From assembly GCA_000934665.2 (NCBI GenBank), contig JYFJ02001981.1, positions 1-64,000 on the forward strand: a stretch of 64,000 nt of DNA, given 5' to 3'. The notes below the pieces were generated by a model. The model did no database searches, was not told the origin of the DNA, and saw nothing but the letters and a program-made list of their open reading frames with translations. Source of the stretch: Catajapyx aquilonaris. Lineage: Eukaryota. The position numbers and the translations under genes were made by a program. Positions 1,541-54,523 of this stretch are shown one piece after another (the first letter of the stretch is position 1; each line of letters begins with the position of its first letter).

Positions 1541-3565
1541 ATGAAACACTTTTTCCATGTGGGATCCAAAATTGCACAGGTACGAAATTACGAGTATGTT
1601 TCTATTACTGTAGTTACGATATTATTGCTTTCTTTATAAGCTTAAATCGATCACTTTCATTTTGGACGCTGTTTATGTTGAAACTATTATAAAGAAAGCC
1701 TTCTGAACATCTGTACGATACATCAATATTATATTAGTGACTACATCAATCTTCACTGATACGTACAAGTGAGAAATACTTTTTCATATTGAACAGATTC
1801 TTACAGCAGTTGCATCATGTCTGGGTCAGGTGTGCGGAGGGGCTGTTCTGGCTTACACTGCTTCAGCAGCACCTTCTCTGATAGTCACTTCCAACACGAC
1901 ATCTAACCCAATGATCATAAATGAGACAGAAGTTGCATGGATTAGTAAGTTGCTGCTTCATTCCTTGTGAATGTGTAAGTGAACAAGTGAAGTGAAGTGT
2001 ATTCAAACTTTACGCCTACAGGTGGCATTGTTCCCATTGGTGCCATCATTGGCAGCATCCTTGGGTCACACCTGCTAGAAATTTTGGGCCGGAGGAGGTG
2101 CATCCTGTGGGTGACAGCTCCTGTCTTCCTCGTTGGATGGATCTTGGTCTCTGCGGCTTACCGTGTGGTCATGATGTATGCGGGCCGAATGCTCACCGGA
2201 TTCGGTTTTGGCCTGTCCATCTCAGCTGCACCCATGATGATCGTGGAGACGGCCGAGGTGTCCATGAGGGGATACTTGGGAGCCCTGCCTCAGGTGATGG
2301 CCAGTATGGGAATCCTCTACAGTTACGCTGCGGGCGTAGCCTTGGATTGGTCCTGGTTGGGTTGGGTCAGCGGGGCAACAGCAATCCCTTACTTCCTCTT
2401 GATGCTGATGGTGCCCGAGTCTCCTGTGTGGTTGCTGTCTCACCGGGGAAGAGAGGAGGCTGTGGAAGCACTCACTTGGCTCAGAGGTGGGCACAGTCAA
2501 GGTGCTGAGAAGGAAGTCAGCGTCATGCAGAGCACAACCGAGGTCAACAATTCTTCCAGTGGACCGGCGTTGCTTCTTCTTAGACAGCTGCCATATCTCA
2601 AGCCTTTCCTGATCGCCATTGGTCTCATGATCTTCCAGCAACTGTCGGGGATAACTGTTGTCATATTTAACATAGTAACAATATTCCAGGTTGGTATTGC
2701 ACGCGGTTATACACTGCTCATAATTCAGAATTTCCTCATTTTCAATTTCCTTTTGATGGGGCTGTCGGGCCACATTGGTTATAGCAAATGTTGTAGGGAT
2801 CGTGTACTGCATTTGGTGATTTGTAAATAGGACGCTCATAATATTATCAGTGTCTTCTTATCAGACTTGCGTGATTTCAAAAATTACCTGTAATATTATA
2901 GGCTCACAGCCCCACACATTCTTCGCGTTATTACTGGTGCGTAGAAAATCTTCTCAGCCAATATTCTCTACTTTTGATTTCAGAATGCCGAAAGTTCTTT
3001 ACATCCTCAATTTGCAACTGCGTTGGTCGGACTAGTTCAATTAATTGCCACGATTGGAGGCGCGGTGTTGGTGGACCGGGTTGGAAGACGTCCACTGCTA
3101 ACCATATCTTCCTTCTTCATGGCTGTGTCCATGTCTGTGCTGGGTGGCTTCTTCTACATGAATGAATACAGCAAGAACACTCTAGGATGGCTGCCTGCCG
3201 TCATCCTGATCGTGTACGTGATCGCCTTCTCCATAGGATATGGACCTTTGGCATGGCTGGTAGCAGCTGAATTACTGCCCTTCGAGATCAGGACTGCGGT
3301 CAGTCCCTTGGCTGTTGCAGTCAACTGGATCTGTGTCTTTGGCGTAACTTTCTCATTCACGTCACTCGTTAGTAGTATACACCAATACGGTGCATTTTGG
3401 CTTTACGGTGCAATGGCTGCGGTGGGGGTACCTTTCAGTTTATTTTGCGTGCCAGAAACTAAGGGACTCGGGCATGACGACATCAAAAGAATCTTTCATG
3501 GATCACCCCCAGTGGAACACCAAAACGAGGGAGAAATACTGCCAACTACGGTGCCAACACATTGA
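1541..3565 (+). CDS. T1: MFS sugar-porter, facilitated trehalose transporter Tret1-like (478 aa)
   Basis: join(1541..1579,1797..1944,2022..2689,2984..3565); GT-AG introns of phase 0/1/0, open frame. Motifs GRRR, ETAEVSMRG, PESP, QQLSG, DRVGRR, GYGPLAW, PETKG; about 12 hydrophobic segments; AATAAA at 3729. Confidence 0.93.
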
Positions 3566-3878
3566 TTGGCATCGTTATCCTATCGTCATCTCTTGCATGC
3601 TCACAAAATGTATATGTGATGCGTGTCATTATGATAGTATGCTAAACTTGTTATAACTTTTACAGTGCTGCAGTACTACTGTACTGTTGTGGCGAGCAGT
3701 TATTGCTTCCCCCTTGTATACTGCACAGAATAAAGAATATAATATAATGAAGTTTCCAGTAGCCACAAAGTAGCTTAATATTCAGTTATTGTAACATCCT
3801 CGTTTGGCTAAAAAAAAATTAATGGCCAAAGCCTATTTATTTCGATCCCGTACGAGTATATCGGCCATATTATGTTAA

Positions 3879-4677: not shown

Positions 4678-7023
4678 ATGAAGTACATTTTCCGTGTAGG
4701 ATCCAAATATGCGCAGGTACATTGTTATTTCTGATACAATATCTTTGTCATGTCCACTAAACTCTAACAAGTAAGCTTCCAACATCAAGTACGGTACATA
4801 ATATGCCGGCTTTCATCACTATTTTGTTACAAACTGGAAGCCACATTTTTACTGTCTTGTTACATCATGACGGTTACTTGGAATGTTGTCACCTACATTA
4901 TTTTATATGCCTGAAATTGCATGATAGGCTTATTGAACATCTGACATAAATCAATAATATTAGTGACTGTACGTAATTATCTTCACTGTTACAAGTAAGC
5001 AATACTTTATTTTTCACTTGAAATAAGCAGATTCTTACAGCAGTTGCAGCCTGCCTGGGCCAGGTGTGCGGAGGGTCTGTTCTGGCTTACACTTCTTCAG
5101 CAGGACCTTCTCTGATGGACACTTCCGACACGGCATCTAACCCAATGATCATAGATACGCCACAGGTTGACTGGATTAGTAAGTTGCTCAAGTCTCATTC
5201 CTGTAATTTATACATAAGTGAAGTGCAGCATACTCAACTGTCTGTGAGATAATCTTGACACTGGCAATACTACCATCTATTCAGTCACCAAAGACTGATT
5301 GTTATGAGAAGTTTAGTTCAATAGAGTTGTTGCATAGCTTATAATAAAATAAGCTGCCAGTATTGATATCAGTGGACAGCTATCCAGAAAGTCATCAGGC
5401 GAGCGACAGGCGTTCAATGGTGTTATACATTGAGACATCCACTGTCACTCTTTAATAATGAGAGATGCATTGTTTCCAGGTAGCATTGTTCCCATTGGTG
5501 CCGTAGTTGGCAGCATTGTTGGGTCACACCTGTTGGAAATTTTGGGCCGAAGGAGGTGCATCCTGTGGGTGACAACTCCTGTCTTCCTCGTTGGATGGAT
5601 ATTGGTCTCTGCAGCTGTACACTTGGCCATGATGTATGTGGGCCGACTGCTCACCGGATTTGGCCTAGGTCTGTCCATCTCAGCAGCGCCCATGATGGTC
5701 GTGGAGACGGCCGAGGTGTCCATGAGGGGATATTTGGGATCCCTGCCTCAGGTGATGACCACGTTAGGAGTCCTTTACAGTTATGGCGCCGGCGCTGCTT
5801 TGGATTGGTCCTGGTTGGGTTGGGTGAGCGGGGCAACAGCAATCCCTTACTTCCTCTTGATGCTGATGGTGCCCGAGTCTCCTGTGTGGTTGCTGTCTCA
5901 CCGGGGAAGAGAGGAGGCTCTGGAGGCGCTGACTTGGCTCAGAGGTGGAGACAGTCAAGGCGCTGAGAAGGAAGTCAGCGCCATCCAGAGCAGCGCAACC
6001 GAGGCCAACAGTTCTTCCAGTGGACCGGCGTTGCTGCTTCTTCGACAGCTACCGTACCTCAAGCCTTTCTTGATCGCCGTTGGTCTCATGTTCTTCCAGC
6101 AACTGTCGGGGATCTGTGCTGTTATATTTAACACCGTAACAATATTCCAGGTAGGTAACCCTCAGTTACTTATGGGCATAATACAGGAATCCCATTCACT
6201 GTAATTTCCTTATGATGGGGGTGGTAACATTGGGTAGAAAATAAAGTTGTAATTTTCATCATCTATACGCTTGAATGTAACTATTATTTGTAAATAAGAT
6301 ATTATGCTCAACGTCTTCTTGTCAAACCTGCTCGGGTTTCAAACATTAGGCCTACTGTTCGTATTACGCCCATACATTCATCATGCTATGACTGATGTGT
6401 AAAAAATCTTCTTAACTAATATTAGTTACCTATGATTTCAGGATGCAAAAAGTTCTTTAGATCCTCACATTTCCACTGTTTTGGTCGGACTAGTTCAATT
6501 AATTGCCACGATTGGAGGCGCGGTGTTGGTGGAGCGGGTTGGAAGACGTCCACTGCTGACCATATCTTCATTCTTCATGGCTGTGTCCATGTCTGTTCTG
6601 GGTGGCTTCTTCTACATGAATGAATACAGCAAGAACGCTCCAGGATGGCTGCCTATCGTCAGCCTGATCGTGTACATGATTGCCTTCTCCATTGGATATG
6701 GGCCTTTGGCATGGCTCGTAGGAGCTGAATTACTGCCCTACGAGATCATGACTGCCGTTAATCCCTTGGCTGTTGCAGTCAACTGGGGCTGTGTCTTTGG
6801 CGTGACCTTCTCATTCAATTCACTTGTTAACAGCATACACCAATACGGTGCATTTTGGCTTTATGGTGCAGTGGCTGTAGCAGGCGTACCTTTCAGTTAC
6901 TTTTGCGTGCCAGAAACGAAGGGACTCTCGCATGACGATATCAAGAGAATTTTTCATGGATCTCCTCCACCGGATCACTCAAATGAGGGAGAAATATTTC
7001 CAACTACGGTGCCAAAATATTGA
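4678..7023 (+). CDS. T2: Tret1-like sugar porter (479 aa)
   Basis: join(4678..4716,5031..5178,5480..6150,6442..7023); exon 1 MKYIFRVGSKYAQ; same intron positions and SP motifs as T1; AATAAA at 7202. Confidence 0.93.
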
Positions 7024-11851: not shown

Positions 11852-14499
11852 ATGAAGTCCCGTTTCGTTGTGGGATCCAAATTTGCTCAGGTACTTGTTT
11901 ATTCGTGTAGTAATTTCTTCCTGTCATGTCTAGTTAATTGCGCCTGCAGTTTCTTTGATATCCACACAACTTCATTTCAATCCTAGACAATACCTATTGT
12001 CTAAGATGTCAATATGTCCTTTTATTAGCAACTTACATAATATTTGAGACGCATATTAGTTACTGGTGTGAAATCTTTCAAATTTTCGGAACCTGTTTGT
12101 TACCATACACTGGTTCTGAAATGTTATCCAACAGAATAATACCAGCAGTCTTCTCCTGCATACATTCATAAATAGTACTGTATTATTCACATTATAAAGG
12201 CTCATTCACACAGGCCGTCGACGGTTTTGGTTTTAGTTTTGGTTTTGGTTTTGGTTTTGGTTTTGGACCAATCAGAGCGGGCCCTCACTGTAACCATGAC
12301 GCGTTGTTTACGTGAGGGCCCGTTCTGATTGGTCCAAAACCAAAACTAAAACCAAAACCGTCGACGGCCTGTGTGAATGAGCCTTAAGTCAGTGTATCAT
12401 AACAGTTACTTTGTCATAACTTTGTTGACTTGCTATTCCCCACATAATCATTTCTGAAATTGTGCGAAAGGATCAATGTTCGTGATTATGCTTATCTCTT
12501 CAACTGCAAATAAGCACTATGCTCTAGACACATTTGTTTCTTTTCAAATAAACAGATCCTGACTGCAGTTGCAGCATGCCTGGGCCAAGTGTGCGCAGGG
12601 ACTGTCCTGACTTACACATCTTCAGCAGGACCTTCACTGAAAGCCACATCTAACACGACATCTAACCCAATGATTATTACAGATACAGAAGTTTCGTGGA
12701 TTGGTAAGTTGTTATCGACTCCTTGTATATGAAATTAAAGTGAAAATATGGGCGAAAAACATTGACCTGAAACATTGAGATATCCACTGATTTAGTGCAT
12801 TGCTTATAGGTAGCCTTGTTCCCGTGGGTGCCATAGTTGGCAGCATTCTTGGGTCACACCTGCTGGAAATTCTGGGTCGGAGGAGGTGCATCTTGTGGGT
12901 GACAGTTCCTGCCTTTCTCGTGGGATGGATCTTGGTCTCTGCGGCCTTCCATGTGGCAATGATGTATGCTGGCCGACTGCTCACTGGATTCAGTGTTGGT
13001 CTGTCCATCTCAGCTGCACCCATGATGGTCGTGGAGACGGCCGAAGTGTCCATGAGGGGATACTTGGGAGCCCTGCCTCAGGTGATGGCCAGTGTGGGAA
13101 TCCTCTACAGTTACGCTGCAGGCGTAGCCTTGGATTGGTCCTGGTTGGGTTGGGTCAGCGGGGCAACAGCAATCCCTTACTTCCTCTTCATGCTGATTGT
13201 GCCCGAGTCTCCTGTGTGGTTGCTGTCGCACCTGGGAAGAGAGGAGGCTCTGGAGGCGCTGACTTGGCTCAGAGGTGGGGACAGTCAAGGTGCTGAGAAA
13301 GAAGTCAACGCCATAGAGTGCAGTGCATCCCGAACCAGTATTGCCAACAGTGGACCAGCTTTGCTGCTTCTTCGCCGATTACCATTCCTCAAAGCCTTCT
13401 TGGTCGGTCTTGGTCTCATGATCTTCCAGCAACTGACGGGCATCAACGCTATCAGATTTTTCACCGTGACAATATTCCAGGTTGGTGTTGTTCACGAGTC
13501 ATTTACAAAATGCACAATACTCAGGCTTACTAGTTACTACTTGGTTACTACAGTACAATTATTTGAATATCTACGCGGACTAATTAATAAAATTGCTTAG
13601 CAAAGATTGCAATTTTGTGCCGGATGTAGCACAATTATTGAGATCACGTTTACATTGGTGGGCATTTTGCTGTCTCTCGCCCCTGTGGATTCATGTTCAT
13701 TACTGTACAGTACTACCATACAAACCAAAATAAGATTAGAACAATCTTATACTGACGCTATATGCAACCACCAAGCTCTATATCACGGGTTTTCCCTAAC
13801 CTTCTCCATGATCAAGTGCTGAGGGTGGTAAAGATAGGATACGCATGTGAAATATTATTAGACATGTAGGCAAAAAAACCCCTGTTTAACATGTCTCTCT
13901 AACTCATTGAAATACCATTGCCATTTCAGGATGCTGGAAGTTCTTTGGATCCTCACATTGCGAGTGTTTTGATCGGACTAGTTCAACTAATAGCCACGAT
14001 TGGAGCAGGAGGATTGGTGGAACGGGTTGGAAGACGTCCACTGCTGACCATATCTTCATTCTTCATGGCTGTGTCCATGTCTGTTCTGGGTGGCTTTTTC
14101 TACATGAATGAATACAGCAAGAACGCTCCAGGATGGCTGCCTATCGTCAGCATGGTGGTGTACGTGATCGCCTTCTCCATAGGATATGGACCTTTGGCAT
14201 GGCTGGTAGCAGCTGAATTGCTGCCCTTCGAGATCATGACTGCAGTTAATCCCTTGGCTGTTGCAGTCAACTGGGGCTGTGTCTTTGGCGTGACTTTCTC
14301 GTTCACATCACTCGTTAAAAGCATACACCAATACGGTGCGTTCTGGCTCTTTGGGGCAGTGGCTGCAGTGGGAGTACCTTTCAGTTTCTTTTGCGTGCCA
14401 GAAACTAAGGGGCTCACGCCTGACGATATCAGAAGAATCTTCAGACAACCGTCAACAAAGGAGGGTGAAATACTGCCAACGAGGCTGCCAAAATATTAA
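11852..14499 (+). CDS. T3: Tret1-like sugar porter (475 aa)
   Basis: join(11852..11890,12556..12703,12810..13480,13930..14499); exon 1 MKSRFVVGSKFAQ (an in-frame upstream ATG at 11840 is possible); QQLTGIN, PESP, PETKG. Confidence 0.93.
12198..12384. mobile_element. PIF/Harbinger-like palindromic MITE (187 bp) in T3 intron 1
   Basis: TAA|AGGCTCATTCACACAGGCCGTCGACGG...CCGTCGACGGCCTGTGTGAATGAGCCT|TAA; 3-bp TAA TSD; arms carry (RGTTTT)n, 7 units left and 4 units right. Confidence 0.75.
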
Positions 14500-16752: not shown

Positions 16753-18578
16753 ATGAAGATAGCTTTAAGACTTGGACCAAAACTAGCTCAGGTTCAATAT
16801 TTGCTAATAATTTCGAATTTTTAAAAATCACATTTCAAATGCAGGTATATTGCCATTATATACCACCAATCAATGTTATACATTTTCTACATTCCCAGAT
16901 ACTGACAGCTACAGCAGTCTGCTTTGGTCCATTATGCGGAGGACTCTCTGTAGGATACACATCTGCAGCTTTGCCATCCATGCAAAATGGCACGTCTATA
17001 ACCGTAACAGACGGTGATGCTTCGTGGATAGGTATAAGTGCATAGGCTTTGATTTCTCAGTGTTAATAGTTAATCAATAGTGGGGCGGAGAACTCGATAA
17101 TAATGTTTTGACTCACGAGAGGCTTTCTCTCTCATTTTTTTTTGATGTAATAAATTTACCGATTTACATTATTCTGCATCTTGCAGGAGGCCTTTTCCCA
17201 ATGGGTGGATTGATTGGGAACTTCCTAGCATTGCCCATGCTCTCCATCCTGGGGCCGAGACGGTGCATACTGTGCATAATATCCCCAGCATTTGCCAGTG
17301 GGTGGATTATGATTTCGGCAGCTGTGAATTTAGCCATGATATTCGCCGGTCGAGTTCTGGTAGGAATTGGGTTCGGCATGGCTGTTACAGCTTCTTCCAT
17401 TATGGTGATGGAAACATCTCAAGCGTCGCTGAGAGGATACCTGGGATCACTCACCCAGATGCTGATGAACGTGGGTGTCCTCCTGAGCTACATCATGGGC
17501 GCATGGTTGAACTGGCAATGGCTGGGATGGGCCAGCCTGGTCCTCTCTGTCATCCCTTACTTTATGTTGATGCTGATTGTCCCCGAGTCTCCAGTGTGGC
17601 TACTCTCGCACCGTGACCGACAGCAGGCACTGGACGCACTCATCTGGCTCAGAGGCGGAAACGTAGTGTTGGCTGAGGAGGAACTCACATCTGTCGAACT
17701 TCATGTGTCAGAACATAGCAAAATGTCGTTTGCTGCGTTTGCTCAATCCATAGCGCTACTTCGGAAGAGGACATATTTCAAGATTTTTCTGATTGTTGCT
17801 GGTCTCATGATCGTCCAGCAAATGTCGGGCGGAGTTACTATATCCTTCTACACAGTCAAGATTTTCCAGGTTGGTATCACACGTTACTGCAACTCATGCC
17901 AGTGTTAAAGTCGAGGGGTAACTCTGTATAGGGATATAGGTATGCATAATTAATAATTACCATTCCCCCACCTAGTACGCTGGAAGTACTTTGGATCCCC
18001 ATGTTGCGACCATCCTGGTTGGAATTGTGCAGTTTGCAGCAACCGTCGGAGGCACCTCACTGGTCGAACGAGCCGGAAGACGTCCGCTTCTCCTGACTTC
18101 TGCATCCATCATGGCTGCATCCATGGCCGTCCTAGGAGCCTACTTCTACATGCAAGAGGACGGGAGCAACCCCCCGGGATGGCTGCCTATGCTTAGCATG
18201 ATGGTGCTCTTCGCAGCTTCATCCGTGGGCTATGCGCCGCTCGGGTGGATGATGGCTGCCGAATTGCTACCCGTTGAAGTGATAAGTGCCGTCAATCCAT
18301 TGGCAGCAGCAATTAATTCCATTGCAGTTTTTATTGTTACGTACACCTTCCAGGGAATGAAGGATTCCATCCATTTGTACGGTACTTTCTGGTTCTATGG
18401 TGGGATAGCATTTATGGGAATAATCTTCACTTTCTTTTGTGTTCCGGAAACAAAGGGGCTCACGCGTGAAGAGATTAGACGTATATTCTTTGGAGATGAA
18501 CAAAAACAAAGTAATGGTACTAGTATACAACATGGACAGGCTCACGTTATGTATAATGGTGGTAAAGAAGTAGCATGA
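16753..18578 (+). CDS. T4: Tret1-like sugar porter (485 aa)
   Basis: join(16753..16791,16899..17031,17187..17869,17976..18578); exon 1 MKIALRLGPKLAQ (weak donor GTTCAA); SP motifs with divergent QQMSGGV. Confidence 0.9.
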
Positions 18579-34249: not shown

Positions 34250-36617
34250 ATGTTACTCAAGCTAAATATAGGATCGACAGCGGCACAGGTAATTCATTCT
34301 CTCACTGTGACAGTCGACAATCACTGATGTGTCTTTTATTCAGTTAGCTGTAGAAAAATCAAGTTATTATATTATTATAAGATACTATTTGTATTAACAG
34401 CATCGAATATCAGTGATCGGTGTCATTCAAAACTTGTGTTGTTGTACGCATGTGTGCTGGGCCTAGTCCAGCGAATGTCTAAAGATGCTTCAGAAAGATA
34501 CCTTATAGGAGGTGCAAACATCTGCAAAAACCTCAGCATCGAACAAGGTACCGATAAATTGTACTGACAGAGGCGTATATCAAAGATAACTGAGACCAAC
34601 CCTAGTCTATTCGCTGCATCCAGAGTCAGTTAGTCGTGTAATAATTACTTAACAATATATTGATAAATCATAATAATTGGGTCTATAATCACCTGAAGAG
34701 TCATATTCAAAATGCGACGTCCGGAAAAAGTAATGTATACATGTATTTGTACGTTACTCCCTAAATATAATATTACAAGACTGAATCTCTTCCAAAGGTC
34801 CTGACATGTTTCACGGTATGCATGGCCACGTTCGTCGCAGGTACAGTTATGGGATTCACCTCCCCGGCTCTACCCCAGCTACAAGCAAAGTCAACATCCG
34901 ACCACTCAACCTTATCCAACGTTTCAGACGCTGACGCTGCCTGGATTGGTAGGATTACCATCGCTTGTTAACACGCTTGTTAATCTTAATTTTGACCAAA
35001 ATGTGACTCTAAATAGTTCTGCCTTTCAGGTGTTTATTTGCAATTCTAACTTTACTCCTATATAAACAGCAGGAAAGACTGACTTTTCATCCGCTGTCAT
35101 GTAGGCTAATTTCTTTTCCAGTAAGCCTGTGCCCTCTGGGTGCCCTCTGTGGAAGCCTTCTGGCGTCGCCTATGCTGTCCACGATTGGCAGGCGTCGGTG
35201 CCACTTATGGGTCACGGCTCCGACGTTTGTAGCGTCTTGGGTGCTGGTGTCCGGTGCCGTCCACATAGCCATGATGTACGTGGGACGATTTTTGGGTGGA
35301 CTGGGAATGGGAATAGCCTTAACAGCAGCACCCATCATGATCATCGAAACAGCTGACGTGTCCCTGCGAGGATACTTGGGGTCACTACCGCAGACTTTTG
35401 CAACGGCTGGTACCCTCTACAGCTCCGTTTTGGGGATTTGGTTGGGTTGGTCTCCGTTGGGATGGGTGTGCCTTGTCCCCGTGGTTCCTTATGTGATCTG
35501 CCTCCTTCTGGTGCCTGATTCTCCAGTGTGGTTGCTGTCCAATCGGGGACGGCAGGAAGCACTGGAGGCGCTTACGTGGCTTAGAGGTGGAGATGTCCAG
35601 TTGGCTGAGGAGCGGCTTAGTGCCATGGAGAAAGAAAAAGAATCAACCAAAGATGAGAAGACTCCAACCTACAAGGACAGTTTTGCTCTGTTGAAAAAGG
35701 CTCCATACCTGAAGGCTTTCCTCATTGTCGTTGGTCTGATGATGTTGCAGCAACTCTCTGGCATCACATCTTTACTGTTTTACACCGTTCCAATCTTCCA
35801 GGTTGGTTAATAGTTAATTTGTTAATGCACGGAAGCATAAACCGGACCTTGAAACTACATCCCTTGAATAAAATACTCACTCGTGGTCAATTAACTATTA
35901 TGCCCAGTGCATAACCAGTATGAGTTCTCGTCATATCTATTGCATGCAGAAGTACTCTGCTCTTGGCAGTAGTTCTACTGAAATACTATTCAATAGCTCT
36001 TTTGTTGACTTTAGGCTAACGATGGACATTATTCTCCTCCTTAGGTAGCTGGAAGTTCCCTGGAACCATATGTAGCCGGTGCCATAGTTGGTGTTGTGGC
36101 CACCCTGGCACCTCTGATAGGCACCCTTTTGGTCGAGCGTGCTGGTCGACGGCTGCTTCTGACCCTGTCTGCGTCAGTCATGACAGTGGCCTTAGCAGGG
36201 CTCGGGACTTACTTCTACCTAAAGGACCACGGTTCAGCTCCACCGGGATGGCTGCCTCTTCTCTTCATGGCTGTGGAAATAATCTCTTTCGCATCCGGAT
36301 GGGGGCCTCTGGTCTGGTTGGTGGGGGCAGAACTGCTGCCCTACGAAATCATGAGCATTGCCAATCCCATTGCCGTTTCGTTGAATTCTGGATGCGTTTT
36401 TCTAATAACATTCACCTTTAAGTCATTACAGAAGGCTATTAGGTCATACGGACTCTTCTGGTTGTACGGTTCAATTGCATTAGTATGTGTGCCTTTCAGT
36501 TTATTTATCGCTCCGGAAACAAAAGGTCTGACGTCGGAGGAAATCCGGGCCATATTTTTCGGGCCTGAGCTGAAGAATATTCAGAGTGATAAGTCAACCG
36601 TAAAGGAAACTGTTTGA
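34250..36617 (+). CDS. T8: Tret1-like sugar porter (480 aa)
   Basis: join(34250..34288,34798..34948,35122..35801,36045..36617); exon 1 MLLKLNIGSTAAQ; PDSP, QQLSGIT, GWGPLVW, PETKG. Confidence 0.9.
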
Positions 36618-38199: not shown

Positions 38200-41100
38200 A
38201 TGTTATTCAAAGTGGAATCCAACACTGCACAAGTAAGGTGTTCCATTTATAATAATTATTTATGAATCATGATTAAACATTTGCGTAACAAATTGAACAA
38301 TGGCATATTTTTAAAAATAAATAGAAAGTGATTAGCTAGTTTGATGAATTGGTTTTTTAAATTAGCCATATACCAAAATTATTCATGAACCAAAGGTTTT
38401 AGGCAAGAAGAAATCAGAGCTTTTAGTTTCCATAATGTAATTATCATTTTCACGTGGATAAATAAGAGAAAATCGTATATTTTAACAAGGTGAAGTGGAA
38501 GCTGAATAACTAACAGTAAGGACTTTGAAGTGTGTTTGAAGCTCTAAAAGGAAATAGCCCCATTTAATGCCAGTTTATTTATTTGTGTGTATCATTGCAT
38601 CATTTGAAATTTGTAATAACCGAGAAGAAAAAGAATAACTCTTGCATCCAAACATTACCATTAGGAATTTTGGGATCGCCTATACACTTTGTTAACAAAA
38701 AGACACATATCTTGAAATATATCATTTCATTATAATAAAAATAATATCTGTACATAATATATCAGTTCTCTTTGCAACAGGCATTGCCATTATACCTTTT
38801 GGTAAAGTAATAAGTATTGGATTTATGTACCGATACTGCGATTATCGACAATCACTGATGTTAAACTTTAAGGCTGCCTTAGAATACTGATATAGTGATA
38901 GTATATACGGGTTTCGGGGGCTATCGGGTAACAGTACGTCATTGGTGTGATAAACGGGTGACAACATACAGTAATGGTTACAAGGCAATATTGAAGCAAT
39001 GCTTTCATTTTATAAGCTATAGATTCTTGCAATCTTGCGGCCTGAGAAGTGAGCATGCGTGGGAAGAACGTGAATTAACAGCAAATGTGCCCTATTCTTT
39101 AATGAATCGTAATACTTAAAAAAAGTCTACCATATTTCCATACATTGTCTCACAGTCGTTGAATTTATTGATCTCAGGACTATATTATCTTCCACCGATA
39201 TTCTACCGATATTTATTGTTAATGCTGCAAATATTTTCTCAACAAGATGAGTCAGAACTTATTATCCTATCACCGTACTCATTTGTCCAATACAAGTCGA
39301 AAATGCAGGGGCGAGGAATTTAGAAAAGCCAACTGATAAGTTATTTAGACTTATATACTTGGCCAACTCGGACCTAGCGGGATATTCACCTGGAGTTCTA
39401 ACTCACCAGAGATCACATGCGTCATAATGTACCGAAAATGAGAGAACGATCTGACGCCATCGTTTCTTTCATTGTTGCTTTTTTGTTGACACTGTTTACT
39501 CATATTGTTCTATGAGGGTATTTCCATGGAAACCTTGATGACGTCAGATCGTTGTCTCATTTTCCGTACATTACATGTCTGCAAACGTAATGTACACCTA
39601 AAAACCATTTAATAATATCCCCGCCCTTTCCTTGCTGTCATAATGAAAAGTGCAATCATTAATCCGCCGGTGCTCTAATTTCGTGTTCAAGATACTGACT
39701 GCAACTGCTGCCTGCATGGGTACGTTTGTCGGTGGTACAGTTTTAGGATACACCTCATCCGCCTTGCCTTCGCTTCAGGGAAACACAACTTCTAATATCA
39801 GATTCAGCGTTTCAGATTATGAAGCTGATTGGATAGGTAAGTTTATTGAGATTTATATGAAGCACAGCGAAAGTATGACAGCCTTGGAATATTATGTGCA
39901 GTGTAGCCTACCTATTTGGTGCTTCTTTTTCGTCACTTTCTAGGAAGCCTATCTCCAGTGGGGGCCCTCTGCGGAAGCCTCCTGGCGTCGCCTGTGCTGT
40001 CCATGATTGGCAGGCGTCGGTGCCACTTATGGGTGACAGCTCCAGTGTTTGTCGCCTCGTGGTTGCTGATTGCTTCTGCAGTCCACATAGACATGCTGTA
40101 CGTGGGACGCGTTCTGGGCGGTGCAGGACTGGGTCTGTCCTTAACAGCGGCGCCAATCATGGTGGTCGAAACCGCCCAGGTCTCCATGAGAGGGTACCTG
40201 GGAGCACTCACGCAAATATTAAACACGGTCGGGATCCTGTACTGCTACATCCTGGGCGTCTGGCTGGATTGGTCCTGGTTGGCATGGGCAAGTCTGGTGA
40301 CCGTGGTTCCATACGCCGTCCTAATGCTCCTAGTGCCGGATTCACCAGTGTGGTTGCTGTCCAATCGGGGACGCCAGGAAGCACTGGAATCGCTTACTTG
40401 GTTGAGAGGTGGAGATGTCCAGTTGGCTGAGCAGGAGCTTAGTGTCATGGAGAAAGAATCGACCGAAGAGGAGGTCAACCCTTCATACAGGGAGAGTTTT
40501 GCACTGATGCCACAGGCTCCATACCTCAAGGCTTTCCTCATCGTTGTCTGTCTGATGCTATTCCAACAACTCTCAGGAATCACCGCTGTACTTTTTTACA
40601 CCGTGGATATATTCGAGGTTGGTCTATCACAATACGAGGATAAGAGAATATTGTGTGTCTGAATATAAGTAGGGTGTGCTGCATGCTTCCACTCATAAAA
40701 ATAATTCATAAAGGGGTGTACATATTAATTAGTTAGACATGGAGGAGGACCAAAAGGGGCCGAAAATCAGCATGAAGTCCTACTAAGGATGTTTGAGTTA
40801 ATAGTAATTTTTTTCCCCGCAGGCAGCTGGAAGTGACTTGGAACCCCATATCGCCACCATTATAGTTGGTATCATGGCAACACTAGGAACCATCGGAGGC
40901 ACACTGTTGGTAGAACGTGCTGGTCGACGTCCACTTCTGACCACGTCGTCATCAATCATGACATTGTCCTTGGTGGTGTTAGGAATTTACTTCTACATGA
41001 AAGACCACGGGCCAACTCCTCCGGGATGGCTGCCTCTCCTCTGTTTAACAACTGAAATAATCGGATTTTCCATTGGCTACGGGCCTCTGGTCTGGTCGGT

Positions 41101-41389
41101 GGGAGCCGAATTGCTGCCCTGCGAAATCATGAATATTGCCAATCCGATTGCAACCGCACTGAATTCCGGAGGAGTATTCCTGGCAACCTTTACTTTCAAA
41201 TCATTGTGCAAAGCTATTCAACCATACGGCGTGTTCTGGCTGTACGGGTCCGTAGCCTTATTAAGCGTGCCTTTCAGTTTCTTTTGCGTTCCAGAAACGA
41301 GAGGGCTCACATCTGAGGACATCCGGGACATATTTTTTGGAAAACGTGAGAAAAATGTGAAAAGTGAGAAATCTCTAAATATTATCTGA
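38200..41389 (+). CDS. T9: Tret1-like sugar porter (472 aa)
   Basis: join(38200..38232,39692..39836,39944..40617,40823..41389); exon 1 MLFKVESNTAQ|GTAAGG is the least certain part; closest to T8. Confidence 0.88.
39425..39573. mobile_element. MITE-like element (149 bp) in T9 intron 1
   Basis: 37-bp inverted repeats TAATGTACCGAAAATGAGAGAACGATCTGACGCCATC / GATGACGTCAGATCGTTGTCTCATTTTCCGTACATTA (3 mismatches); TSD ambiguous (the outer TA may be the TSD). Confidence 0.65.
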
Positions 41390-42858: not shown

Positions 42859-45263
42859 ATGAAGCTACCTTTTAACTTCGGGGCAACAGCTGCCCAGGTA
42901 AGTTTATATTTTGTATGCTTGGTACTCTCATCACTCTTCATGAACTGCCACTCCACAGTAACAGTATAATCTAGACTTTAGAGTACACATCAAAATATAT
43001 CTTACACATAGGCCTACATGTCAATGTGGACTTTACCATTTATTTGCGTTACATAAAATAATATGCACTACAATAATAATTATGAAATGCTACAAGGCTG
43101 ACCCACAGTACTTTCCATACAATAAGGATGTAAATTAATTAGAGAGAACGTCGGAGGAGCATGTGCGCCAAGGACAAAGCATCTCAATGCGACAAGTTGA
43201 GAGACTTTCACAAGTATAGAGGTAGCTGAAAATAATAGTAGTGACAGTCATTATCCATAATCATACTGTAACACATTATGAGTAGCCTAGTTAGTTGGGA
43301 TCACGGCAACAGAAATGATAATATTGCACAAAATAAACGCGATGACAGGTATTTTAAAACATTGTGTACTATTCTGTGCACTGTAAAGTTGAACTAATGG
43401 CTAATAACTGATAAATATTAACGTAATCATAAGGTATTCATCAGGGTGGGAAAAACCCAATCGTTGATTAGGACAGAGGTTATCTAACTGATAATTCCAT
43501 TAGTGTGTATCAAAAAGTTTACCGCTAAATGCTAAGCCATTGACTAACCACCTTGACATTATTTTGAAAGACTTGCAAGTTTTAAAAAATCCAAACTGCG
43601 GAGCCATGGGATACTTATCAATGGATATATAGATCGATGAGGCCTCACTTTCTCCCTTTGGAAAATCATGGCAGCGGGATGAATAGCATCAAAGTAATGT
43701 CCATTAAAAATATTTTCCCATTCCCAGTCGCTGACAGCAGTGGCAGCATGCTTGGGGATGGTTTGCGCAGGTGCAGTGCTGGGATACACTTCTTCAGCGC
43801 TGCCATCAATGCAGAACTCCACCATAACATCGCACATGGCTTTTGAAGTCACCGATATGGACGGCGACTGGATAGGTATTACTTGACGACAATCCTTGAC
43901 TTATTTGAGCGTGCAGCTAAGACCAGACCATAATGATGTCTTGATTTATTTTTAGGTGGACTCCTGCCTCTTGGAGCTCTAGGTGGAAGTCTTCTTGGAG
44001 GACCTATAATGGCTGTTGTGGGTCGAAAGAAGACAATGGTACTGATAATAGCGCCCATTTTCACCATTGGTTGGATCCTAGTTTCTGCCTCTGTCCACAT
44101 AGCCATGATGTTTGTAGGTCGTTTCTTGGGAGGTTTTGCCGTGGGCCTGTCCATTACTTCATCACCCATGATGGTCGTGGAGACAGCGCAAGTTTCTCTC
44201 AGAGGCTACCTCGGGGCTATGCCGCAGATAATGGTGACAATCGGCATCCTCTTAAGCTACTCGTTGGGTGCGGGCCTGGATTGGGTCTGGCTAGGATGGG
44301 CCAGCCTCATCATGGTCGTTCCTTACGTTCTTCTGCTGCTCCTGGTGCCAGAGTCTCCGGTGTGGTTGCTGACCCACAGAGGACAGCAGGAAGCCTTGGA
44401 AGCCCTCACTTGGTTGAGAGGTGGAAACGAAGAGGTGGCTAACCAGGAACTAATGGCCATCCAGGAAGGTATGAATGAAGCCAAAGGCTCATCGGACGGA
44501 AACGCTGCTCAACTTCTACGGCAACTACCCTACTTTAAGGCCTTCATGGTCGTCATCGGACTAATGCTTTTCCAGCAGCTATCAGGAGTCAACGCAGTTA
44601 TATTTTACACCGTTATCATATTTAAGGTTTGAAAGCTGCACCATCCAAATCCAATGGTAGGCATGACCTAACACCTGCCATATATTTCAGGAAACCAACA
44701 GTGGCATTGATCCCAACGTGGCCACCATCCTTATTGGTATCATTCAAGTTCTGGCTACCGTAGCAGGTACAGCTTTGATAGAGAGGGCAGGAAGACGGCC
44801 TCTCCTGACCGCCTCCTCACTTTTCATGGCCGTGTCCGCGGCCATGATGGGAGGATTCTTCTTCATGAAGGATCACAATGGCGACGGTTCTCAGGGATGG
44901 CTGCCTCTTCTGAGCATGGCCGTGTACATCATCGCATTTTCCATTGGGTACGGCCCCTTGGCCTGGTTGTGCGGTGTTGAGTTATTGCCATTTGAAATCA
45001 TGAGTATTGTCAATCCCGTGGCGACTGCTATCAACTGGGGATGTGTGTTTCTCGTTACATTCACCTTTAAATCGCTGCAAGCTGCCATAACGACATATGG
45101 TGCATTTTGGCTGTTTGCTGCAGTGGCCGCAGTAGGAGTGCCTTTCAGCTTTTTCTGTGTTCCTGAGACTAAAGGGCTTACACCGGACGAGATCAGAAGT
45201 CTCTTTCGCGGTTCTAATTCAAAGAAAAATGCTTCATACAATGGAGACTTAGAAAAATATTGA
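42859..45263 (+). CDS. T10: Tret1-like sugar porter (476 aa)
   Basis: join(42859..42897,43728..43875,43956..44626,44691..45263); exon 1 MKLPFNFGATAAQ; most canonical pocket motifs (PQ, QQLSGVN, IQV, GPLAW, NW). Confidence 0.93.
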
Positions 45264-48569: not shown

Positions 48570-51500
48570 ATGTTTAGAGTAGGAGCCAAGGTTGCCCAGG
48601 TGAGTCGTTCCTTCTGTTCTCTTATGCAACATCCTTGGGACCTGACACTTTTTGGGATTCAGAATTTTTCGTACCCAACTTCGGAATATTTGTAGGCTAC
48701 TGTACAAGTACATTATTTTGCATTTATAAAATGGGACAGCTTTGGGATGAGACCTAAGCCTAACCACGATATCCATTTGCATTTAATTAGAATAGAGGTT
48801 ATGCATAAACTCTGAAGGTTATTAAATGTTTAATTATTCTGTATATTTCGTACAGATTTAGCTAATGACGCTATCCATGTTACACTCACATTGAACTTTG
48901 TATTTGTGGCGTGTCACGGCAGCCCTAATTTTTTCCGATTTTGGGATTTCGGATAAATGATTCTCAGCCTGTACACACGGTTTTTTTAAAAAAATACTGT
49001 GTGGGTGTGAAGATGGGTGTGTGTGTGTCGGTGTGTAGGAGCAAGGAACTTTTGCACCAGTTCAATGGACTTATCCCACAGATTCAAATTATCGTCTGGC
49101 GTACTCTCATAAATATTTGCATATAGTATGCGGCATACGCCCACTGTGAAGACGCACACAAAAGAATCAGATGTCAAATATGATCAGTCATAACCAGACT
49201 GATCCAGGCTTGAACATGCTGTGGAATAATCCTGTTATGATACCGATACCAACATATCAAGCTGTAGAATTGTAGATACTACGATCATTTCCGCACCAGT
49301 ATTGTAAATGTCACGTTACAGGTCCAATGTCATTAGTCTCATTACTCTCCTTGATGTCACATGATATAGCCCACAACTCCAGACAGGAGATAATACGGTT
49401 TTTTCGGTGCTGTGATTATCCATTCAAGTTCGCTGATAGTGACTATTTCTTACGCAACCCTGGCACGACAACATATTTTAGAAAATCAAGGACGAATCTT
49501 AATTATGTAAACAGCGTGGAAAAAAATTAGTTTCCCTCTCGAAAACAACTTCCATATGGCCATGTCTGGTACTTCACGTCAACCAAATTCCCAAAATTCC
49601 AGTCAAGTAGGTTTATTATTACGGTATGTCAACAACATACTTTTACCAGAAATGGTGAAATATTCACTATTTTGTTTTTATAACATGTAAAATATACGTC
49701 GTACACGTATCATTCCTGGGTTGGGTGATACCATATTCATCTTGTTATATATTAATGTCTTCAGCCCATAAGAACAAATTACATTTTGTCCCCCTTTGTG
49801 TCAATCAAATTTTCACTTCAAAACTCAAAACTTCAAAAGGAGACAGAAATATTGCCAGCTGATACAACATTACCAGGCCTGCGTTCAGCTGCTTACTAGT
49901 TGTTTACATTGTATGATTGTACGTTTTGTGTATGTGTTCATATCATTTATATCATATTCATCCCTTTCATTAACCTCTGCGTGGCCTGACCATCCACCAG
50001 AGTGTCATTTTGTAGGTCATACGAGGGGGACAGGGGCAACCTGTACTCCGCTGGCTACCCCTCTATGGGATTATTTTGCCGTGAAGTAAATGATGATGGT
50101 GATGATGATACAACATTACTAATAAATTGGTAAGAGTCAATGTTTTTATAATAACTGGAGATAAATATTCATAACTTCATCCTCAGGAAAACATGATGCA
50201 CTCTCCCAAAATATGATGCCATGCTGTTGCACATTATGATCGCAAATTCGCAATAATATTACAAATCTAACACGTACTTTTGAAAATCAGTACTGATCAA
50301 TAGTTAGTATTTTTAAAGGTATAAAACCTGACTTACATTTCACGACTCTCTCAACAGAAAATGCAATCATAAAAATAATTAAACTGTCACTACGACTTGC
50401 GTAATACGACGGTCGAATTTATAGTTCGGAATGAGGTTCAAAATAGTCTATTTCGTCACAGTATTTGGCAAAAGCTGAGAATTACTGTAGTGATAATATG
50501 TATACTGCAATATACAATGATGCAATTCCCAAATATTCCATGGATTTTATTGCAATAATGATTCCTCTGCTTCGTACTGCAAAATACTCCAGGGCCCGAT
50601 GATCACTTTTTATTAGTCCAACTTATGGAAATTGATTCAATCTTCCGCTACACCAACGTCAGTTTGTCATTAATCGCATCGCGCCAGCTAATTTTAAAAA
50701 TATTAGCCTTGCACTACATGGCGTAAATATTGTGACCTTTGATAAAGGGATTAAAGGCGCATCATATAGTCCTTATACCAGTGTGCAATACGTAATTATA
50801 CGCATATCCATAATAAATGGACAATATTCTCTGAAATAGCCCTACCACAGAAAACCCCATCATAGTAAGTCGTCTATGCTACTCATCATGAGATCAAAAT
50901 GTGAAACCCAACCATATCGAACCAGGGACGCGTACTTTACCTCAAAGGTACTACGCCTCTCTCACCATAAATACTAAATGCGGTTCAAGTACTAAAATGA
51001 TCCGATTATCCCAATTGGTATGCCAGTATGCCACTATGTTTATTCATGTAGTCAGAATTAATAAACTAGATCCAGCACATGAGGCGAACGTCACGAGTTG
51101 ATATAACCTAACCAAAAATTATCCACAGATATGGACAGCCACAGCAGCTTGCTTAGGACTGCTTGTGGCAGGCACAGTCTTGGGATACACTTCTTTTGCA
51201 ATACCTTCTCTACTGGAATACAGCGCTGCAAATGGGACACTAACGGTCAGTCCCGAGGAAACAGCCTGGATCGGTACGTTCAAGTCATTTTTATTTAGGC
51301 CTACCACTTCCAAAGAGTCCTCTACTTGCTCTGACTCTTCCATGAACCAAACAACCAAAATAATATGTTTTTCCAATCATGTTTAGGAAGTCTCGTCCCA
51401 CTCGGAGCCCTTTTTGGAAGCCTCTTTGGGGGACTCATACTGTCCATTGTTGGCCGTAGAAGAACCATGCTGCTGATCATCGCCCCCGTTTTTACCGTGG

Positions 51501-52712
51501 GGTGGATATTGGTGGCGGCCGCAGTCCATTTGTCCATGATATACATTGGACGTCTGGTGGGAGGTCTCGGCGTGGGCCTAGGAATAACATCGGCGGCCAT
51601 CATGGTGATGGAGACTTCCCAGGTGTCTCTCAGGGGCTACCTGGGTGCGCTGCCTCAAATCATGATTGTCACAGGCATATTGCTCAGCTACATCGTGGGT
51701 GCCTTCGTGGACTGGTCCTGGCTGGCTTGGATCAGCCTCACCACTGTGATTCCTTACGTGCTGTTACTGCTGCCTGTGCCCGAATCTCCAGTATGGCTGC
51801 TGTCGCACAGGGGACGAGAGCAGGCATTGGAATCTCTGACCTGGTTGAGAGGTGGGGACACGCAGGTGGCTGACCAGGAGCTGACTGCACTGGAAGAAGG
51901 AGTGTCTGAAGCCAAAACCTCCTCTGGGCATCCCATCTTCCTTCTGAGGCAGTTGCCCTACCTGAAGGCCTTCCTGGTGGCCATCGGCCTCATGCTTTTC
52001 CAGCAGATGACCGGAGTCAACGCTGTGGTGTTTTACACCGTTCAGATATTCCAGGTTGGTCCAATCATAAATTTCTCCAGGTCTATTACACTATTTTGAC
52101 CATTTTTTATAATGGCAGGACTCTGGAAGCAACATGGACCCCAATGTTGCGACTATTGTGGTTGGAGCCGGGATAGTTCTGGCAACCCTTGTGGGAGCGG
52201 TTTTGGTGGAGCGAGCTGGACGACGTCCACTGCTGACTATCTCTTCCTTGTTTCAAGCAGTGTCCATGGCTGCCTTAGGAGCATACTTCTACATGAAGGA
52301 GAATGGGTCTGATCCTCCAGGCTGGTTGCCTCTTCTCAGTATGGCTTTGTACGTCATCTTCTTCTCCATTGGATATGGACCTTTGGCGTGGTTGGTGGCG
52401 GCAGAGATACTACCCGTCGAGATTATGAGTGCTGTGAATCCCATTGCTATCGCAATTAATTGGGGATGTGTCTTCTACACTACATTTACCTTCATATTGA
52501 TTGTAAATAGCATAAACACATATGGAGCCTTCTGGTTGTATGGTTCTGTGGCTCTGCTAGGTGTTTTATTCAGTTTCTTTTGCGTACCTGAGACTAAAGG
52601 CCTGACACCTGATCAAATCAGGAAGATCTTTTATGGAGATAAATCAAAGACCGACGTTGTTAATCAAGGGGGATTGCTTGACAAAGATAAATGCAAAGAA
52701 GACATTTGTTGA
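48570..52712 (+). CDS. T11: Tret1-like sugar porter (478 aa)
   Basis: join(48570..48599,51129..51273,51387..52054,52119..52712); exon 1 MFRVGAKVAQ|GTGAGT with Inr-like TCAGTT at 48547; QQMTGVN, PETKG. Confidence 0.91.
48621..48971. mobile_element. pogo/Tigger4(Zombi)-like MITE remnant in T11 intron 1
   Basis: Right end TTTCGGATAAATGATTCTCAGCCTG|TA and ordered internal blocks TTGGGACC, GGAATATTTG, GGGATGAGACCTAAGCCTAACCACGA, CTGAAGGT, TTGTGGCGT resemble the Tigger4 deletion-derivative consensus as I recall it; left TIR eroded. Confidence 0.55.

Positions 52713-54447: not shown

Positions 54448-54449
<2 letters not shown>

Positions 54450-54523
<74 letters not shown>
54450..54523. repeat. (AAT)n microsatellite
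   Basis: About 24 perfect AAT units. Confidence 0.97.

Follow-up and report, generated by a model that had tools for sequence, protein, structure and literature searches.

Among the closest described systems are the glucosinolate transporters (PaGTRs) of the flea beetle Phyllotreta armoraciae, 21 Tret1-like sugar porters reported to form a clade specific to that species (Yang et al. 2021, PMC8113468). For the fall armyworm, Spodoptera frugiperda, 86 SLC2 genes have been reported, frequently in tandem clusters (PMC12829187). Tret1 itself, the facilitated trehalose transporter of insects, represented here by proteins from Drosophila, Hermetia and Chilo (P0002-P0005 and P0130), belongs to the same Pfam family as the array that we describe, is about 40% identical to it, and has PESP and PETKG in common with it. 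Identity between paralogues is wide both in the array (48-92%) and among the PaGTRs (31-93% in that report), and both carry the expectation that duplicated sugar porters gain glycosides or other new substrates. The PaGTRs are a proven precedent for such a change of substrate.

The window is a 64,000-nucleotide stretch of a Catajapyx aquilonaris contig (JYFJ02001981.1, positions 1 to 64,000). Positions 1541-52712 form a 51-kb locus of 11 intact multi-exon sugar-porter genes (PF00083), T1 to T11. Each gene has three large coding exons, joined at canonical GT-AG sites and uninterrupted by stop codons. The locus begins at the start codon (ATG) of T1, whose conserved first exon has 13 codons, and ends with the last base of the T11 stop codon. 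A tblastn search of the window with the 11 proteins as queries detected no further fragment or pseudogene beyond the exons of T1-T11. For T4, T7 and T11, two pattern scans failed to locate a first coding exon, and the ones assigned to T5 and T6 are tentative. Neighbours on the DNA are also neighbours in the tree (T1-3, T4, T5-7, T8-9, T10 and T11). The genes are as follows, with residues given at the equivalent GLUT1 positions.

T1, 1541..3565, plus strand: exon 1 at 1541-1579 (MKHFFHVGSKIAQ), exons at 1797-1944, 2022-2689 and 2984-3565; T at the N288 site (2654-2656), Q at the N317 site, W at the W412 site; R400 position at 3290-3292 (plus strand) is AGG, Arg, in this copy alone of the array
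T2, 4678..7023, plus strand: exon 1 at 4678-4716, exons at 5031-5178, 5480-6150 and 6442-7023; C at the N288 site (TGT, 6115-6117), Met at the R400 position; 84% identical to T1
T3, 11852..14499, plus strand: exon 1 at 11852-11890, exons at 12556-12703, 12810-13480 and 13930-14499; N288, Q317 and W412 retained, Arg at the F291 position
T4, 16899..18578, plus strand: exons at 16899-17031, 17187-17869 and 17976-18578; I287G, N288V, F379S, G384A, W412S, L at 375, Ile at the R400 position
T5, 20169..21824, minus strand (inverted, head-to-head with T6): exons at 21824-21671, 21573-20903 and 20741-20169, tentative exon 1 at 22396-22361; G at the N288 site, M at the N317 site, S at 375, S at the Y292 site, T at the W412 site
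T6, 24116..25753, plus strand: exons at 24116-24269, 24359-25029 and 25181-25753, tentative exon 1 at 23560-23595; Q161N (AAC, 24628-24630), G at the N288 site, W at 375, T at the W412 site; 92% identical to T5 with dS 0.10, the youngest pair
T7, 28184..29955, plus strand: exons at 28184-28325, 28509-29179 and 29386-29955; N288 and Q317 retained, T at the W412 site, I at 375
T8, 34250..36617, plus strand: exon 1 at 34250-34288, exons at 34798-34948, 35122-35801 and 36045-36617; T at the N288 site, A at the N317 site, S at the W412 site, Glu at 375 in TM10 (GAA, 36276-36278); PDSP
T9, 38200..41389, plus strand: exon 1 at 38200-38232, exons at 39692-39836, 39944-40617 and 40823-41389; derived pocket as in T8 (T, A, S and Glu, the last at 41054-41056); PETRG
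T10, 42859..45263, plus strand: exon 1 at 42859-42897, exons at 43728-43875, 43956-44626 and 44691-45263; family-typical pocket, equal to its sister protein P0115 at 18 out of 19 pocket sites compared
T11, 51129..52712, plus strand: exons at 51129-51273, 51387-52054 and 52119-52712; family-typical pocket save Ile at the N317 site (ATA, 52173-52175)

A Pfam scan covering exons B and C of T1 (not exon A with TM1) matched Sugar_tr at profile positions 54-299 with 138.2 bits and 291-452 with 124.5 bits, respectively, against a cut-off of 22.3; the other ten copies were aligned to T1. Sequence matches in the PDB comprised GlcP, STP6, GLUT1/3/5/7 and XylE, the named best matches having E values between 1e-27 and 1e-14. 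The 12-TM two-half fold was matched by alignment to full-length XylE and to GLUT1, GLUT3 and XylE chains over TM2-TM12, and a hydropathy scan gave ten segments, two of them of double length. The motifs that we take to be the signature of the sugar-porter family were all present: GRR/K after TM2 (GPRR in T4, GRKK in T10), E-x6-R after TM4, PESPR, QQxSGxN, ERxGRR after TM8 and PETKG. The sequence-only reading had called the scaffold motifs nearly fixed, and this was borne out: L[TI]WLRGG occurs in all 11 copies, and PESP, ER[AV]GRR and PETKG vary only as PDSP in T8 and T9, DRVGRR in T1 and PETRG in T9. T1-T11 are thus members of the MFS sugar-porter family (PF00083; TC 2.A.1.1; SLC2 or 'Tret1-like') with predicted transport activity. 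Thr occupies the position in T1 that corresponds to XylE D27, presumably the proton-coupling residue, which fits facilitated diffusion.

In a tree of 57 rows (quick search, SH-aLRT support only), T1-T11 formed one clade with an SH-aLRT of 99, and the array label needed one change, compared with 10.2 in shuffles. The sister of the array was an unnamed protein (P0115) with 48% identity to T10. Within a comparison library of one representative per 50% cluster, from which close relatives of the source species were apparently absent, the Tret1-like sugar porters of the array are monophyletic, and their expansion is restricted to one lineage. We considered T1-T11 as Tret1 orthologues and rejected this assignment: the Tret1-named proteins formed a separate clade (support 100) with the array outside it, and the pocket signature differed. 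That signature (T161, G164, N165, N317 and T/A415) denotes the residues seen in the named proteins here rather than a published definition. At these positions Tret1 has T at 161, where the array has Q (N in T6); G at 164, where the array varies; N at 165, where the array has mostly T or S; N at 317, where the array has Q or, in some copies, A, M or I; and T (A in Chilo) at 415, where the array has V or A. T10, T11 and T1-3 resemble Tret1 in QQxSGxN, in F379, S380, G384 and W388, and in N411-W412; W412 is absent from T4-T9.

Pocket residues were mapped by alignment to Escherichia coli XylE and by aligning T10 exon B with HMMER to the GLUT1 chain 5eqg, the latter placing Q161, Q282, Q283, N288, F291 and Y292 directly. 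N317, equivalent to XylE N325, and the offsets from TM8 to TM11 were derived from the XylE alignment, GLUT1 ranges and GLUT1 numbering. For TM1, two alignments lay four columns apart; we chose the pairing of GG..Y with GG..Y, which leaves positions 26 and 30 less certain than any other. Equivalences between XylE and GLUT1 positions follow Table 5 of PMC3853582.

The residues listed earlier for the array were reproduced throughout. From T1 to T11, the N288 site reads T, C, N, V, G, G, N, T, T, N, N, and the N317 site reads Q, Q, Q, Q, M, Q, Q, A, A, Q, I in the XylE alignment. N411 is present in 11 out of 11 copies and is followed at the W412 site by W, W, W, S, T, T, T, S, S, W, W; Q161 is replaced, by N, in T6 only. 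The Glu residues reported in TM10 of T8 and T9 lie at the position of XylE Y379 (GLUT1 375), not at E380. These varying positions are described as sugar-contact or gate sites of XylE and GLUT1 (PMC3853582, PMC9867014, PMC4412407), and their usual strong conservation was also confirmed, with N288 at 87% and W412 at 89% in the nearest 45 family members. Compared with GLUT1, GLUT3 and XylE, the array keeps Q161, Q282, Q283, W388 and N411, as well as G384 in 10 out of 11 copies, whereas N288 is kept in 4 out of 11, N317 has become Q, A, M or I, E380 has become S or A, N415 has become V or A, W412 is lost in 6 out of 11 and R400 in 10 out of 11. At the heart of the sugar site, Q161, Q282, Q283, W388 and N411 are essentially unchanged (all but Q161 without exception), so that a hexose-like moiety may still be bound by many copies.

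The changes are concentrated in the T4-T9 clade, in which Ser or Thr replaces W412, with further changes at N288 (G, V, T), Q317 (A, M), 375 (E, S, W, L, I) and 291, mostly to smaller residues; alteration is greatest in T4 together with T5 and T6, and T11 and T1-T3 are nearly family-typical. The pocket residue volume was 218-539 cubic angstroms less in T4-T9 than in T10. Position 375 probably faces the cavity, judging from its helix register one turn from F379, and position 291 may do so according to a docking list in PMC9867014.

The sequence-only reading had called the pocket hypervariable, a term that our counts did not sustain: within the array, pocket sites were as variable as the average column (2.33 versus 2.30 mean steps, p=0.46). 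Among 45 outgroup units, picked by score against a profile built from the array and mostly of unknown taxon, the pocket was about twice as conserved as average (7.67 versus 16.4 steps). Compared with control sites matched on outgroup conservation, the 21 pocket sites of the array carried 49 rather than 26.7 changes, an excess of about 1.8-fold (p=0.0002-0.0008). The excess persisted without the six sites that the earlier reader had flagged (33 versus 20.4, p=0.016) and for 14 crystallographic XylE sites (27 versus 15.0, p=0.008); the polar hydrogen-bonding set of eight sites alone showed none (10 versus 7.9, p=0.31). By this measure, the predicted central sugar-binding cavity has lost in the array the extra conservation seen in the rest of the family. 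Changes were counted by fewest-changes parsimony, in independent pairs and with likelihood models that sum over ancestors.

An excess of this kind over controls of equal conservation could indicate continuing diversifying (positive) selection that keeps the pocket hypervariable in the style of chemoreceptor or immune arrays, with each copy tuned to its own solute. Codon models pointed the other way. They gave no excess of nonsynonymous change at the pocket, an outcome that the sequence-only reading had itself named as counting against its proposal: omega was 0.30 for pocket codons and 0.27 elsewhere (LRT 0.65, p=0.42), and a positive-selection class added nothing for the array genes (M2a versus M1a, LRT 0.86, p=0.65). 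M2a did place sites 288, 291, 317 and 375 in classes with omega of 1 or above (posterior 0.98-1.00), but its class with omega above 1 comprised 0.3% of sites and contained no pocket site. Five independent gene pairs showed pocket differences at 29/105 codons versus 586/2199 elsewhere (p=0.82). Only the T5/T6 pair had a pocket excess (5/21 versus 34/444 codons, p=0.019 uncorrected), which was lost after correction for five pairs; two of its differing pocket codons, CAG/AAC and ATG/CAG, involve two-nucleotide changes, and its pN/pS was 1.49 in the pocket, a value not shown to exceed 1, versus 0.37 elsewhere. Diversifying selection as a continuing process therefore seems unlikely to us. The M0 likelihood (-11907.70) agreed with that of IQ-TREE (-11907.6965), and branch lengths in the site models were held proportional to M0. 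The deep branches are synonymously saturated, with a tree length of 8.7 per codon and dS values exceeding 1.5 from one subclade to another, so the site models are weak for old episodic selection.

Alternatively, the copies could be redundant and under generally relaxed constraint, the pocket differences being neutral drift in genes that carry the same sugar or are decaying. Pairwise dN/dS in the array ranged from 0.07 to 0.40 and was higher in young pairs (0.35-0.40) than in old pairs (0.15-0.25), and the variable pocket sites fell in a neutral-like class, both as this alternative would predict. Yet all 11 genes are intact despite the synonymous divergence between subclades, and with an M0 omega of 0.27 the array is under purifying selection overall. 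Near-fixed scaffold motifs and the four invariant contact residues also argue against general relaxation, as does the restriction of the excess to the pocket when sites of equal family-wide conservation are compared. Moreover, replacements of W by S or T, N by G and Y by E at contact positions are unlikely to spare binding, given that N288C, N317A, W412A and W412L are reported to reduce transport by GLUT1 (PMC4412407, PMC9867014). We consider redundancy with drift improbable.

The explanation that we favour, and hold to be probable, is that the array expanded in tandem within one lineage and that constraint on the pocket was released or shifted, so that copies probably differ in substrate range. 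Repeated local duplication in one arthropod lineage would have given rise to the 11 intact paralogues, the transporter scaffold being kept under overall purifying selection. Constraint on the pocket would have been released, or shifted episodically, after duplication, rather than replaced by continuing diversifying selection. In T4-T9, the change of W412 to Ser or Thr, together with mostly smaller lining residues, may have produced wider or chemically different cavities, and such copies, as putative uniporters working by facilitated diffusion, may transport different solutes: other sugars, disaccharides, polyols or glycosides. That different copies differ in what they bind is, on the residues described above, very likely.

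A separate observation, absent from the sequence-only reading, concerns a scaffold residue on the intracellular side. In the E-x6-R motif after TM10 (E393...R400 in GLUT1, E397...R404 in XylE), Glu is present in all 11 copies and Arg is gone from ten, its position being occupied by Met in nine, Ile in one and Arg in T1. Among relatives, 165 out of 178 sampled units have Arg or Lys there and none (0/178) has Met. The adjoining PMY motif reads PMM or PIM in 11 out of 11 copies, Tyr having given way to Met. In the aligned proteins, the departure from E-x6-R is a single residue, a real difference that leaves the array within the family.

The sequence-only reading had also allowed for sensors, and we found nothing to support that suggestion in the C-terminal tails, which are short: about 25-45 residues follow PETKG in 11 out of 11 copies, and none has the long cytoplasmic signalling tail that we take to define Snf3/Rgt2-type sensors. 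Non-transporting sensors (transceptors) among the copies could account for Met or Ile at the R400 position in ten copies and for PMM or PIM throughout, in that GLUT1 R400 mutants are reported to lose transport, with a suggested arrest facing inward (PMC4412407). Yet the array retains its other salt-bridge motifs (GRR, the N-half E-x6-R, ERxGRR and PETKG), and T1 has Arg at the R400 position; we regard sensors as very improbable. Since ten copies have lost an Arg whose mutation impairs GLUT1, normal alternating-access transport by them is not assured. A bolder proposal combines both sets of changes. T4-T9, with the W412 'floor' lost, the lining shrunk and an acidic residue in T8 and T9, would have been re-purposed for bulky glycosides, disaccharides or charged sugar derivatives, and the array-wide changes of the R400-type Arg and the PMY Tyr to Met would have rewired the intracellular gate that normally keeps sugar porters outward-facing, resulting in an unusual gating cycle or receptor-like behaviour. 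We think this speculative and doubtful.

Under the favoured explanation of tandem expansion with released or shifted constraint, the locus spans, within 51 kb, a natural gradient of pockets, family-typical in T10 and strongly altered in T4, T5, T6 and T8, which makes it handy for studying which residues of the pocket determine the substrate range of arthropod SLC2 carriers. The replacement of Arg at the R400 position in ten out of 11 copies (by Met, once by Ile) likewise offers a naturally occurring test of the intracellular salt-bridge gate, which is mutated in human GLUT1 deficiency.

The diverged-pocket pattern is not special to this window. In annotations from the beetles Asbolus and Abscondita, multiple units of the same family are fused, and the pocket positions that vary in the array also vary between adjacent units: units 1 and 2 of P0108 are 74% identical and differ at 10 out of 19 pocket sites, and pocket differences between tandem neighbours in these annotations are as large as in the array, or larger. 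These insect SLC2/TRET clusters arose by independent expansion in other lineages, and Met at the R400 position sets the array apart from every unit sampled. Apart from its pocket series and R400 position, the array is an ordinary case of a well-known process in arthropods, in which Tret1-like sugar porters multiply in tandem and diverge; this is a known way of diversifying sugar and glycoside transport and not a new kind of system.

The window is eukaryotic DNA of arthropod type. We delimited the 11 genes (T1 to T11) from stop-to-stop frames and then set their exon limits with the help of splice signals and conserved peptide anchors. The stop-to-stop frames revealed three large coding pieces that recur across the window (a slash marks the exon end):

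TM1 exon, in each of the 11 genes, ending one base into a codon, ...TGGAT[TA][AG]/GT
TM2-TM7 exon (exon B), ~670 bases, in 11 genes, ending ...TTCCAG/GT (AAG or GAG in two copies)
TM8-TM12 exon (exon C), the last exon, about 570-600 bases, in 11 genes

Every junction was GT-AG, and the joined frames were open in 11 out of 11 genes, spanning 460-472 codons without the first exon. A 13-codon first exon (M..GSKxAQ/GT and variants) is kept 5' of T1, T2, T3, T8, T9 and T10; that of T1 starts at 1541, where the sequence-only reading had begun the array. The first exons of T5 and T6 are tentative candidates, and a search upstream of T4, T7 and T11 settled on none. T5 is inverted relative to T6, the two lying head-to-head ~2.2 kb apart (20169-25753). 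Searching the window with the 11 proteins by tblastn yielded no fragments or pseudogenes besides the array exons.

A repeat some 150-190 bases long with a tRNA-like GGTTCGATCCC box, probably a tRNA-derived SINE, occurs three times in the intergenic spacers of the array, and we noted other features between and beyond the genes:

about 22740-22890 (+), 37095-37290 (+) and 47780-47960 (-), copies of the repeat with the tRNA-like box
46316-46387 (+), tRNA-Ser (GCT) predicted by ARAGORN, between T10 and T11
54435-54638 and 56114-56347, long microsatellites of the AAT/AAC type, whose frames translate as poly-Asn or poly-Leu
~53.6 kb and ~55.4 kb, the two single N bases of the window, giving X in translated frames
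about 56832-57257 and 59381-60142 (+), gene for a rhodopsin-type GPCR (131 bits to Pfam 7tm_1), just 3' of the array

The best named relatives of the GPCR, at 56-59% identity, were 'thyrotropin-releasing hormone receptor-like' proteins and ecdysis-triggering-hormone receptors from cockroach, mayfly and termite. Its 59% identity to the cockroach and mayfly proteins fits an arthropod source.

Pfam Sugar_tr matched exons B and C of T1 at 138 and 124 bits, respectively (cut-off 22.3), and sequence matches in the PDB were GlcP, STP6, GLUT5, GLUT7, GLUT1, GLUT3 and XylE. A word-based search returned full-length relatives at ~41% identity at best, Tret1-named proteins of Drosophila and springtails, and an exhaustive profile search returned 20,452 relatives at E <= 0.001. 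The top profile matches were long annotations of fused genes, each matching over 2-7 stretches, and three of the five looked up came from beetles (Asbolus, Abscondita). Among these top matches, P0108, P0109 and P0111 (1080-2367 residues, 3-7 transporter stretches) are tandem Tret1-like genes of Asbolus and Abscondita that automatic annotation has merged. The closest single-unit relative was an unnamed protein, P0115 (48% identity to T10). In the tree, the array formed a single clade (SH-aLRT 99) with P0115 as its sister, and Tret1-named proteins formed their own clade (support 100). The order T10, T11, (T3,(T1,T2)), ((T8,T9),(T4,(T7,(T5,T6)))) parallels the physical order of the copies along the window; some caution applies to this tree, which came from a quick search with one long outgroup row. 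Tret1-named proteins differ from the array at positions 161, 164, 165, 317 and 415 (GLUT1 numbering throughout), which, judged by sequence, makes the array Tret1-like rather than Tret1.

Pocket residues were numbered by aligning the 11 joined proteins with E. coli K-12 xylE. Aligning T10 exon B to GLUT1 chain 5eqg (492 residues) in HMMER placed pocket residues directly, fixing Q161, I164, V165, I168, Q282, Q283, I287, N288, F291, Y292 and Y293. N317 we take to be XylE N325, from GLUT1 alignment ranges and the usual numbering. On this mapping to XylE, all residues listed in the sequence-only reading were present in the 11 proteins, and the scaffold motifs were nearly fixed, as it had stated. 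The Glu of T8 and T9 falls at XylE Y379 (GLUT1 375), one helical turn outward from F379, and not at E380. Table 5 of PMC3853582 gives the XylE/GLUT1 pairs F24/F26, Q168/Q161, I171/I164, Q288/Q282, Q289/Q283, N294/N288, Y298/Y292, F383/F379, G388/G384, W392/W388, Q415/N411 and W416/W412, and the xylose site described there includes N325 (TM8).

That reading had proposed a hypervariable substrate pocket. We set two site lists from the literature ahead of testing, namely 21 sites, taken from GLUT1 crystal or docking passages of PMC9867014 with the flagged position 375 added, and 14 crystallographic XylE sites (from PMC3853582), and counted the minimum number of changes that the tree requires at each column within the array. 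Pocket columns averaged 2.33 changes versus 2.30 at other gap-free columns (21 sites; one-sided p=0.46) and 2.13 at hydrophobic-segment columns (p=0.34); the 14-site list gave 1.93 versus 2.31 (p=0.77). Four pocket sites were invariant (Q282, Q283, W388, N411), and four changed once each (161, 379, 380, 384). Across five phylogenetically independent pairs (T1/T2, T5/T6, T8/T9, T10/T11, T4/T7), amino acids differed at 29 out of 105 pocket codons versus 586 out of 2199 elsewhere (Fisher p=0.82). A purpose-written codon model, which matched the IQ-TREE M0 likelihood (-11907.70 versus -11907.6965), put omega at 0.299 in the pocket and at 0.268 in the remaining codons (LRT 0.65, p=0.42). M2a did not improve on M1a (LRT 0.86, p=0.65), and its class with omega>1 comprised 0.3% of sites, none of them in the pocket. 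Thus, the pocket has no excess of nonsynonymous change, the signal by which the reading had proposed to be judged, and the strong form of the claim fails.

What is NEVERTHELESS unusual is how the array's pocket changes compare with those at family-conserved control columns. In the 45 best-scoring non-array units, pocket columns were much better conserved than the average column, with 7.67 versus 16.4 changes (p<1e-4). Against control columns matched to pocket columns in outgroup conservation, the 21 sites showed 49 changes in the array versus 26.7 +/- 5.8 expected (p=0.0002; p=0.0008 in a repeat). The excess persisted without position 375 (44 versus 24.9, p=0.002), without the six sites flagged beforehand (33 versus 20.4, p=0.016) and with the 14-site crystal list (27 versus 15.0, p=0.008); the eight polar hydrogen-bonding sites alone showed none (10 versus 7.9, p=0.31). 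Among the 82 columns at least 80% conserved in outgroups, N288 (deviating in 7 out of 11 copies, with 5 states) and W412 (6 out of 11) were among the largest multi-state departures; Y293 departs too (replaced by N in the pair T1/T2 and by F in T3, T5 and T6), as do some non-pocket columns. The array pocket changes more than matched controls and as much as the average column; it has therefore lost its special conservation, yet evolves no faster than other parts of the protein.

The T10 pocket equals that of P0115 at 18 out of 19 compared sites and agrees with several more distant unnamed relatives at key positions, which marks T10 as the family-typical state. Copies T4-T9 share the loss of W412, replaced by Ser (TCC/TCT) or Thr (ACG), and have smaller residues at several lining positions; summed across the 21 pocket sites, their residue volumes fall 218 to 539 cubic angstroms short of the T10 total. 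T8 and T9 additionally have a Glu codon (GAA) within TM10, and their N317 site is Ala.

The youngest duplication, T5/T6 (92% identity, dS 0.10), was unique among the pairs in its pocket-specific excess of replacements: 5 out of 21 pocket codons differed (26, 161, 292, 317, 375) versus 34 out of 444 others (binomial p=0.019), or 4 out of 14 on the crystal list (p=0.019), both values being uncorrected for five pairs. Two of these pocket codons differ by two nucleotides each, and differences between the genes are scattered along their length. The pN/pS ratio was 1.49 in the pocket, where the true value may still be 1 or below, and 0.37 elsewhere. These data are suggestive of selection for different pockets in T5 and T6.

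One scaffold departure, absent from the sequence-only reading, lies near the intracellular salt-bridge gate, at the Arg that ends the E-x6-R motif following TM10 (GLUT1 R400, XylE R404). Arg is found only in T1, nine copies having Met and T4 Ile:

3290-3292, AGG (T1)
18282-18284, ATA (T4)
6748-6750, 14236-14238, 20432-20430, 25490-25492, 29695-29697, 36351-36353, 41129-41131, 45000-45002 and 52425-52427, ATG

Non-array units had Arg or Lys here in 165 out of 178 cases and Met in 0 out of 178; P0115 has Arg. Near the same gate, 11 out of 11 copies have Met in place of the Tyr in the PMY motif that precedes E146; of the 45 outgroup units, 91% have Tyr there. PMC4412407 places R400 with Q397, E146 and R92 in an inter-domain hydrogen-bond set of outward-facing GLUT1, reports reduced activity of R400L and R400C, and cites the suggestion that mutation of E329, E393 and R400 arrests GLUT1 facing inward. 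We speculate that a hydrophobic Met-Met contact might replace the polar one in array copies.

For comparison, we examined neighbouring units in fused arthropod annotations (17 pairs from 15 proteins) and bacterial P0030. Across the 17 pairs, neighbouring units often differed at the pocket at least as much as their overall identity predicts: units 1 and 2 of P0108, at 74% identity, differ at 10 out of 19 pocket sites versus 5.0 expected, and other pairs, such as those of P0134 and P0113, showed fewer differences than expected. Summed over all array pairs, there were 430 pocket differences versus 450.9 expected at the average-site rate. Of the earlier interpretation, the hypervariable pocket falls and a sensor role is unsupported; what stands is that the copies, judging from their residues, very probably do not all handle one solute and are not simply carriers of trehalose or glucose. 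Import of glucosinolates and iridoid glucosides has evolved in species-specific Tret1-like expansions (PMC8113468), and PMC12829187 describes SLC2 repertoires that are very large and clustered in tandem. The array is a further case of this already known kind, a Tret1-like tandem expansion.
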